Notes: generated from the letters alone by a model not told the origin. Numbered from the stretch's first letter, positions 2,041-2,784 are shown. The stretch is DNA of 8,544 nt from a virus (IMGVR_UViG_2703718859_000013), one strand, 5' to 3'. Program-made: numbers and translations.

Positions 2041-2098
2041 CTGGGGTAAAGCGCCGCCAGAATGACGGCGCGGTGAATTTTACGCAGCTTTACCCAGC
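2041..2098. terminator. Nested inverted repeat between convergent genes; candidate bidirectional terminator
   Basis: Outer arms CTGGGGTAAAGC (2041..2052) and GCTTTACCCAG (2087..2097) are near-perfect reverse complements; inner GC-rich hairpin GCGCCG(2051..2056)/CGGCGC(2066..2071) followed by GGTGAATTTT. The right arm overlaps the last codons of the minus-strand gene. Confidence 0.4.
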
Positions 2099-2439
2099 GT
2101 AAAATCAAAGTGGATGTCGTCATACGGAAAAGATGTTCCATTTTCTCCTTTTTCCAGGAGGCCGTTGCTAATCAGTGCGGTTACATCCGTGTGTACGGCT
2201 TTTACGTCACGCCCGACCAGAGCGGCAATCTCACGGATTGACAGTTCTCCGGCACCAGTCATCGCCATGAGTATGTCCATGCGCTTAGGGGTAAGCACTT
2301 TATGCATCATTTGCCAGTCTGGGAATGAAACGATGCTTTCGTTCTTTGACGTCATTCCTTCGGCAACCGCTTTAAAGGCAGACAACACATCTGCCGTGAA
2401 AGCATCCATTGATTCAATACGTATTGTAACTGTTTTCAT
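2080..2439 (-). CDS. Winged-helix DNA-binding protein (about 119 aa), second gene of a bicistronic toxin-antitoxin-like module (putative antitoxin or regulator)
   Basis: Track ORF 2080..2448 (GTG); the likely start is ATG at 2439..2437, 1 nt after the upstream gene's TGA, with GAGGTG as SD; contains a wHTH-like stretch (LSIREIAALVGRDVKAVHTDVTALISNGLLEK). Confidence 0.65.
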   Translation of the reverse strand: MKTVTIRIESMDAFTADVLSAFKAVAEGMTSKNESIVSFPDWQMMHKVLTPKRMDILMAMTGAGELSIREIAALVGRDVKAVHTDVTALISNGLLEKGENGTSFPYDDIHFDFTLGKAA

Positions 2440-2440
2440 A

Positions 2441-2728
2441 TCAGGCACCTCTGCGAATGGATTCTACATCATGGAGGAAGTCAGCAATGAGTTGCTCGAT
2501 GGAAACAAAGTGGGTACTGATTTCCTGAGCACCAATGTGTTTGTGGTCGCCTTTACCTCTTTCGTTGTCGTAGCGCATGACGCAAACACCATCAACAACG
2601 TAAGCCATGCTGTATTTGAAGTTATGGCGGCTACCAAGAACGGCTGGAGCCACCTCCCAGATTTTAATCCTTATGTATTCGGATTCCCCAAGATGGCGAA
2701 TGAACTCTTTATACAGTCTGGATGGCAT
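2441..2728 (-). CDS. Small protein (95 aa), first gene of the bicistronic module; putative toxin or effector partner, family not recognised
   Basis: Minus-strand ATG at 2728 with GGAG SD (complement of 2734..2737); stop TGA (2443..2441) abuts the downstream ATG; promoter-like and palindromic operator-like sequences lie immediately upstream. Confidence 0.6.
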   Translation of the reverse strand: MPSRLYKEFIRHLGESEYIRIKIWEVAPAVLGSRHNFKYSMAYVVDGVCVMRYDNERGKGDHKHIGAQEISTHFVSIEQLIADFLHDVESIRRGA

Positions 2729-2747
2729 AAAAACTCCGTGTATTTAT

Positions 2748-2784
2748 GTTGTTAAGGATAACAACAGTGCATAGCGTTGTCAAT
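2748..2784 (-). promoter_or_regulatory. Candidate sigma70 promoter with overlapping palindromic operator for the minus-strand bicistronic module
   Basis: Minus strand reads TTGACA (complement of 2779..2784), 18-nt spacer, TATCCT (complement of 2755..2760); perfect palindrome GTTGTTA-N4-TAACAAC at 2748..2765 overlaps the -10; ACAACA half-site-like motifs recur at 2790 and 2812. Confidence 0.45.

Follow-up and report, generated by a model that had tools for sequence, protein, structure and literature searches.

The closest described relatives of the locus considered here are the toxin-antitoxin pairs of the TumE-TumA superfamily (PF20126, formerly DUF6516), characterised by Durairaj et al. (Nature 2023; PMC10584680). 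In that work, six of six gammaproteobacterial DUF6516 proteins proved toxic to E. coli, the cognate partner neutralised each of them, the TumE protein of Allochromatium tepidum reduced the incorporation of 35S-methionine, and a ribonuclease (RNase) activity of TumE was proposed, not shown. The validated toxins belong to subcluster 1a and correspond to synthetic fragments of ~400-460 bp, implying proteins of ~115-135 aa; the validated partner fragments are 289-388 bp long. The partner gene is located predominantly upstream in clusters 1, 2, 4 and 6, one partner family of cluster 1 is a remote homologue of RelB, and TumE toxins pair with diverse, unrelated antitoxins (PMC10584680). The searched literature contained no other experimental work on the TumE family, and none on a subfamily in which the toxin gene comes first and the partner is a winged-helix protein. 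A gene pair of this organisation is present on the minus strand of a stretch of 8,544 nt of viral DNA (IMGVR_UViG_2703718859_000013), referred to below in its full length as the window. We consider it probable, at roughly 0.7, that the two genes are a type II toxin-antitoxin cassette belonging to the TumE superfamily, and that a Shiga toxin 1c (Stx1c) prophage carries them as an accessory pair in reverse orientation. Direct analysis of family membership, gene order and coupling, purifying selection, operator and promoter conservation, cassette borders and mobility forms the basis of this assignment.

A previous interpretation of the window made from its sequence alone (the sequence-only reading) had described two minus-strand genes for proteins of 95 and about 119 aa, and open reading frames (ORFs) of these sizes are indeed present at positions 2441-2728 and 2080-2439. 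It had recognised neither protein; this part did not hold, as both match curated Pfam families well above threshold. The first gene (2441-2728, minus strand, stop codon TGA at 2443-2441) encodes a putative toxin of 95 aa that matches the Pfam TumE profile PF20126 with an E-value of 2.1e-14 and a score of 53.7 bits (cut-off 23.4), residues 16-89 being aligned with positions 6-81 of the 81 positions of the profile. The same protein is a full-length match to phrog_16135, and identical E. coli copies are named 'toxin-antitoxin system TumE family protein' by the RefSeq Prokaryotic Genome Annotation Pipeline (PGAP). A profile search returned 1,927 clusters at 50% identity (E <=1e-3), mostly of 90-105 aa. 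PF20126 was present in each of the 120 homologues listed. The second gene (2080-2439, minus strand, stop codon TAA at 2082-2080) encodes a putative antitoxin and autorepressor of 119 aa that matches PF25212 (HVO_A0114) with an E-value of 1.3e-24 and 86.2 bits (cut-off 27.6), identical E. coli copies being named 'HVO_A0114 family putative DNA-binding protein' in RefSeq. The winged helix-turn-helix (wHTH) that the sequence-only reading had placed in the second protein was recovered in this match and in the structural model described below, and its suggestion of a type II toxin-antitoxin module gained support from the homology to TumE and HVO_A0114 and from the same names being given to the identical RefSeq copies. 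The cassette proteins belong to an already named family and are already annotated in RefSeq; in the phage record both genes are labelled hypothetical, and in PHROGs both proteins fall into families of unknown function. Many database records of partner homologues (proteins P0121-P0184) carry the label 'glycosyl transferase family 1'. This label is an apparent propagated misannotation, since every listed homologue has PF25212 and none has a glycosyltransferase domain.

The AlphaFold2 model of the 95-aa protein (predicted local distance difference test score, pLDDT, of 94.9) has a sheet of six antiparallel strands and a single helix at the C-terminus. When 30 relatives were aligned, residues H35, K38 and Y39 and the segment Y53-D-N-E-x-G-K-G-D-H-x-H64 were invariant and E69 nearly so; this cluster is the obvious candidate for the functional site of the protein. 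Searches for a relative of known structure gave only noise among PDB sequences (best hit, a cupin with E 0.14), so that no solved structure resembling the protein was obtained from the PDB sequence search, and the model had no structural match in BFVD. NCBIfam contains no model for it, and no sequence or fold similarity was seen when it was compared with the RelE/ParE or barnase-like superfamilies. In the model of the partner, a strand and a helix at the N-terminus (residues 3-26) are of low confidence and are followed by a disordered linker (28-33) and a confident wHTH domain (residues 42-112, pLDDT ~90), an architecture that, as modelled, resembles that of many antitoxins. Its nearest solved folds in Foldseek are DNA-binding domains of the ArsR/MarR/CggR type; at the sequence level, comparison with PDB gave only noise (best hit, ArsR with E 0.28) and comparison with NCBIfam only ArsR/Csa3 below threshold. 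Residues R69, R77, D78, V82, H83 and D85 are invariant in the partner and all except R69 lie in or beside the predicted recognition helix (79-91). Relative to a diverged E. coli copy (RMDEC465, 78% DNA identity), the ratio of nonsynonymous to synonymous substitution rates (dN/dS) was 0.071 for tumE and 0.065 for the partner gene, with dS ~1.5 for each; both cassette genes are under strong purifying selection. A 213-aa ORF on the plus strand (2114-2755), antisense across the two genes, was judged to be a non-coding shadow because both minus-strand genes have family matches and are under this strong purifying selection.

The TGA-T-ATG junction of the sequence-only reading was likewise read in the window at 2443-2437 (minus strand), where the tumE stop TGA (2443-2441) is separated by 1 nt from the partner start ATG (2439-2437). 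A Shine-Dalgarno sequence AGAGG for the partner (2448-2452, minus strand) is located inside the end of tumE. A mechanical list of ORFs offers an alternative partner start, GTG at 2448, giving 122 aa; the ATG at 2439 was retained because the PHROG alignment opens at residue 4, because it is the start in the deposited annotation and because the AGAGG box lies 8 nt upstream. Conservation of gene order was assessed on a scan of contigs from one genome per species, which gave more than 593 matches; the loci studied were the best 80 of these and the second E. coli copy. Among the family junctions, the two genes overlap by ATGA at 30 loci and by 20 nt at at least 10, and are separated by a 1-nt gap at 17; the assigned gap never exceeded ~10 nt, save for one apparent outlier of 22 nt. 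As overlapping or nearly abutting junctions are found across the family, translational coupling is a family property. An HVO_A0114 gene immediately follows tumE on the same strand at 79 of the 79 species loci that could be evaluated (2 of the 81 were at a contig edge and could not be evaluated for pairing) and on 70 of 70 evaluable IMG/VR viral contigs, i.e. at 149 of 149 evaluable loci in both samples together. The searched literature describes no function, operator or partner for the HVO_A0114 family; this obligatory toxin-first pairing with TumE is derived here, as is the operator consensus described next.

Upstream of tumE, a consensus scan (10/12 positions) identified a promoter of the sigma-70 type at 2755-2783 (minus strand), with a -35 hexamer TTGACA (2783-2778), a spacer of 17 nt and a -10 hexamer TATCCT (2760-2755) that is TGn-extended (TG-T-TATCCT). 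The sequence-only reading had given the same two hexamers with a spacer of 18 nt; the hexamers stand and the spacer is one nucleotide shorter. Promoter-like matches number 2 in 1.5 kb for 2.2 expected, so that the match by itself is not above chance. Transcription of tumE would start near 2748, and the copy in the window has a leader of ~20 nt with a GGAG box, this Shine-Dalgarno sequence (2734-2737, minus strand) being 5 nt 5' of the ATG at 2728. The promoter is overlapped by two putative operators. O1 (2747-2766) is a perfect palindrome centred on the -10, TGTTGTTA-TCCT-TAACAACA, with an 8-4-8 organisation and arms that are 100% complementary. O2 (2776-2794), found by pattern search, has the sequence TGTTGT-N8-ACAAC, covers the -35 and lies 28 bp upstream of O1. 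The palindrome on the -10 had been noticed in the sequence-only reading; it is real and perfect, extends one base further in each arm than had been claimed, and is accompanied by O2, which had been missed. The -35 hexamer is included in one half-site (tTGACAACA) and the -10 is located in the spacer of the other operator. Patterns of the TGTTGT-N8-ACAAC type gave 4 strand-hits in the window for 0.21 expected, a count that was reached in 0 of 200 shuffles.

Operator half-sites were conserved well beyond the window. In the RMDEC465 copy, the non-coding DNA upstream is largely changed and both TGTTGT...ACAAC pairs are unchanged, and half-sites are conserved over ~135 distinct loci of several phyla. 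The operator survey covered the 120 nt upstream of tumE at the 81 loci, which represent Alpha-, Beta-, Gamma- and Deltaproteobacteria, Nitrospirota and further groups. There the density of the 5-mers TGTTG and CAACA is 18.1 per kb, compared to 1.8 per kb for the remainder of the loci, and the motif TGTTG-N9-11-CAACA was found in 40 of the 81 upstream regions compared to 2 of 3,680 control windows. Successive TGTTG motifs are spaced by 28 bp, as in the window copy, in 35 of 67 cases and by 27-29 bp in 45 of 67, and in distant homologues, too, the operators enclose the TTGAC-N17-TA...T layout. This two-operator layout, with TGTTG-N9-CAACA present twice at a distance of 28 bp and embedding the -35 and -10, is conserved across phyla and is new here. 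It argues that the winged-helix protein may be a sequence-specific autorepressor occluding both the -35 and the -10, and the autoregulation suggested in the sequence-only reading is favoured by the half-sites conserved in the 78%-identical copy and at the ~135 loci. A putative autoregulatory operator over the own promoter, a criterion for type II toxin-antitoxin modules, can thus be recognised at the sequence level. At a number of non-enterobacterial loci (L013, L018, L019, L023, L045, L046, L081 and others), the tumE start, chosen there by length only, falls ~7 nt past the -10 (...TGTTGttattgtctccaac-ATG); with starts picked in this way, many non-enterobacterial homologues would have a leaderless mRNA. 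At the other end of the unit, a terminator-like GC-rich hairpin of 9 bp (2051-2071, minus strand; inverted repeat I7) is located 9 nt 3' of the partner stop codon and has a predicted folding energy of -16.5 kcal/mol (z -3.0), so that the downstream inverted repeat of the sequence-only reading is real as a hairpin.

The borders of the cassette were defined by two homology breakpoints. When the window was compared by BLAST with a prophage of E. coli 05-3629 (L083), alignment was obtained at 1788-2075 (98%) and at 2806-3384; the intervening 730 bp of the window (2076-2805, minus strand), which carry both genes, the promoter and the operators, are replaced in the E. coli 05-3629 prophage by a 648-bp minus-strand pair encoding a HigB-like toxin (PF05015) and an HTH_3 HigA protein. 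Other Stx phages have in common with the window only the sequence from 2805 onward, and in PA2-like Stx2a phages minus-strand ParD-like and HigA-like genes precede the same block of isrK and antirepressor genes. From the breakpoints and the replacement by higBA, it follows that 2076-2805 is a self-contained mobile cassette, and that toxin-antitoxin modules replace one another in the slot it occupies. The hairpin (2051-2071) is part of the flank common to both prophages rather than of the cassette, because it lies within the segment 1788-2075, over which the prophage with higBA is 98% identical to the window. The sequence-only reading had proposed that the pair was accessory cargo, and the exact swap with higBA between identical flanks of a sister prophage supports this idea; the cassette borders, the hotspot and the obligatory toxin-first pairing with HVO_A0114 are added by the present analysis. 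The module was detected in 18 of 5,426 complete E. coli genomes, where the copies occupy two unrelated lambdoid prophage backgrounds and oppose the early operon in both. It was further detected in 1 of 50,697 phage records, on 74 plasmids (mostly of Rhizobium and Acetobacter, many of them large replicons) and in 71 IMG/VR contigs. This patchy distribution linked to mobile elements is the one expected for type II toxin-antitoxin modules.

Compared to the described TumE-TumA systems, the cassette has in common a near-full-model hidden Markov model (HMM) match, tight bicistronic coupling, a predicted DNA-binding partner and an association with mobile elements. It also resembles HigB-HigA and MqsR-MqsA in that the toxin gene comes first, the antitoxin, here a putative one, carries a DNA-binding domain (C-terminal in HigA and MqsA) and palindromic operators overlap the promoter, and it shares with HigB-HigA the same prophage slot between identical flanks; it differs from both in having a partner of the ArsR/MarR-like wHTH type instead of HTH_3/Xre. 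With the HVO_A0114 family, the partner shares the HMM match, the wHTH fold and the RefSeq name. Several observations weigh against the assignment to a TumE toxin-antitoxin module. The cassette is toxin-first and its toxin has 95 aa, compared to longer validated toxins; its partner is a downstream, unrelated 119-aa wHTH protein, which does not resemble the validated TumA proteins; and the modelled toxin, which would be a smaller form of the same alpha+beta class, has six strands and one helix compared to the seven strands and two helices published for TumE (PMC10584680). In addition, the operators overlap the -35/-10 consensus, so that their conservation is not pure evidence for the binding of a repressor; the hairpin at 2051-2071 ends in a weak U-tail of only 3 nt (UUU), a weakness that qualifies the terminator-like repeat of the sequence-only reading; and a consensus scan found no internal promoter for the partner inside tumE. 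Because TumE antitoxins are diverse and unrelated, the dissimilarity to TumA leaves room for an antitoxin role of the partner. The unusual conservation of the operator is explained by its fusion to the promoter consensus.

As a type II toxin-antitoxin cassette, the locus may function as follows. One bicistronic mRNA would be produced from the sigma-70 promoter (2783-2755), from which tumE would be translated first and the winged-helix partner would be translated by coupling through TGA-T-ATG. A dimer of the partner would occupy O1, over the -10, and O2, over the -35, through its conserved recognition helix and repress the promoter, and its flexible N-terminal segment would bind TumE and neutralise it. 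If the partner were depleted or titrated, free TumE would block protein synthesis and cause growth arrest, as its validated relatives do. In this scheme we infer the toxicity, the neutralisation through the N-terminus of the partner, the operator binding and the pay-off, which may lie in maintaining the prophage, in excluding phages or in both.

Escherichia phage phiSTEC1589-Stx1c (PQ600364.1), an inducible podovirus with which MG1655 and MC1061 have been lysogenised (PMC12029490), matches the window with 100% identity. The window stretches from the end of the replication region as far as the toxin genes. The two-gene unit on the minus strand opposes the plus-strand early-right (nin) operon of this Stx1c-converting lambdoid prophage. 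On the plus strand, the window carries a DUF977 gene (495-956), two antirepressor paralogues with ORF6N/P22_AR_C (3077-3742) and Bro-N/P22_AR_C (3997-4629) domains, and, between the second antirepressor and stx1A (7075-8031), the genes for NinB, NinE, YbcO, RusA, NinH and Q in that order; stx1B follows at 8042-8311. The two antirepressor paralogues have different N-terminal domains and nearly identical P22_AR_C C-terminal halves, and the gap between them contains an Rfam match to sRNA-Xcc1 (3866-3955, 67.5 bits). A match to the STnc100 small RNA (8394-8544, plus strand, 98.3 bits), cut by the end of the window, is located downstream of stx1B. No tRNA gene was found in the whole window, including the interval between Q and stx1A. 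A 96-aa ORF at 1348-1638 (minus strand) lies in a stretch that is largely unannotated in the phage record and overlaps the 3' end of the gene at 969-1469; it has no match in Pfam or PHROG. A sister prophage has a DUF4145 gene on the minus strand near the position of this ORF; the region could represent a second accessory slot, unless the ORF is a spurious one.

Immediately beyond the right border of the cassette, matches above the Rfam gathering score were obtained on the plus strand for isrK (2842-2915, 54.9 bits) and for C4 antisense RNA (2941-3024, 71 bits). They are accompanied by an isrK-like promoter TTGACG-N18-TATATT (2806-2835) and a terminator-like hairpin (2894-2910). The isrK/C4 region is located 5' of the antirepressor gene 3077-3742 and looks like an RNA switch on the antirepressor, either of the P1 c4/ant type or of the Gifsy IsrK/AnrP type. 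The isrK-like and tumE promoters are divergent, with 22 bp between their -35 boxes, and the isrK-like -35 region (2806-2817, plus strand), TTGACGACAACA, resembles the tumE half-site tTGACAACA and includes a CAACA half-site. This half-site lies in flank DNA common to phages without the cassette; it may be a coincidence, the mark of a recombination point or a sign of cross-regulation.

The biological role of a toxin-antitoxin cassette can be envisaged in two ways, as retention of the prophage or plasmid or as protection from phages, which we hold to be equally plausible. That the cassette is primarily an anti-phage or superinfection exclusion device appears unlikely to us. Infection would then free TumE, for example if shut-off of host transcription depletes a labile partner, and the lysogen would abort the infection; such a function would come on top of the toxin-antitoxin mechanism and would not replace it. 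Abortive infection is brought about by several toxin-antitoxin pairs of prophages. The reverse-oriented cargo with its own promoter, the prophage accessory slot shared with other toxin-antitoxin cassettes and the recurrence of the module in proviral contigs would all fit. The sequence-only reading had also considered a defence function, for which searches lent no support: in PADLOC-DB v2 the 95-aa protein had no match and the partner only weak, wHTH-level matches to Csa3/CasR (E 1.7e-6 or weaker), and no paper in the searched literature ties TumE to defence. In addition, the family is far more common on chromosomes and plasmids (the more than 593 species matches and the 74 plasmids) than in phages (the single record in 50,697).

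An addiction or stabilisation module, which would use post-segregational growth arrest to penalise cells that lose the Stx prophage or the plasmids with related modules, is in our judgement a doubtful account. The presence of relatives on the 74 plasmids, which include many large replicons of rhizobia and acetobacter, is in line with it, as is the interchangeability of the cassette with higBA and parD-like modules, which are classic addiction-type families. The stability of phiSTEC1589-Stx1c lysogens over subculture has been reported (PMC12029490) and also agrees with such a role. Integrated prophages, however, are not lost by segregation, and the benefit is less obvious for them than for plasmids.

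It is improbable that the pair is something other than a toxin-antitoxin system, i.e. that the short TumE-like protein lacks toxicity and acts as a co-regulator, or as a small-ligand or metal sensor, that modulates the winged-helix repressor, the only target of regulation being the pair itself or a phage promoter close by. The length of the toxin, the order of the genes and the family of the partner set the subfamily apart from the validated one, but the Pfam TumE match spans nearly the whole model and six of six tested family members are toxic (PMC10584680). The invariant H35/K38/Y39 and Y53-DNE-x-GKGDH-x-H64...E69 are rich in residues of the metal-binding type, and DeepFRI predicts metal-ion binding for several TumE clusters (PMC10584680). 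The CAACA half-site in the isrK-like -35 region could point to regulation of a neighbouring promoter, but phages without the cassette have the same flank DNA; strict two-gene mobility, patchiness and replacement by bona fide toxin-antitoxin cassettes are, moreover, what is expected of toxin-antitoxin modules. Just as speculative, and also with little chance of being right as a whole, is a joint account in which the short toxin-first TumE/HVO_A0114 pairs would form a mechanistically distinct branch, the invariant cluster being a new, possibly metal-dependent catalytic site without a solved relative, the operators being frozen across phyla by promoter fusion, and the module serving as a lysogen-expressed device for abortive infection or prophage retention, with possible cross-talk to the isrK/C4-antirepressor switch.

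Read as a TumE-type toxin-antitoxin cassette, the locus accounts for two 'hypothetical' genes of a Shiga-toxin phage that is inducible and transducing. In Stx prophages, the position immediately to the left of the isrK/antirepressor block emerges as a point at which one toxin-antitoxin cassette is exchanged for another. The arrangement of a short TumE with a winged-helix partner is widespread, with ~1,900 clusters at 50% identity and more than 590 species matches, and the predicted operator and the invariant motif provide testable handles on the TumE toxin family. Should the module have a stabilising effect on the prophage or keep other phages out, this would matter for how stx1c persists and spreads.

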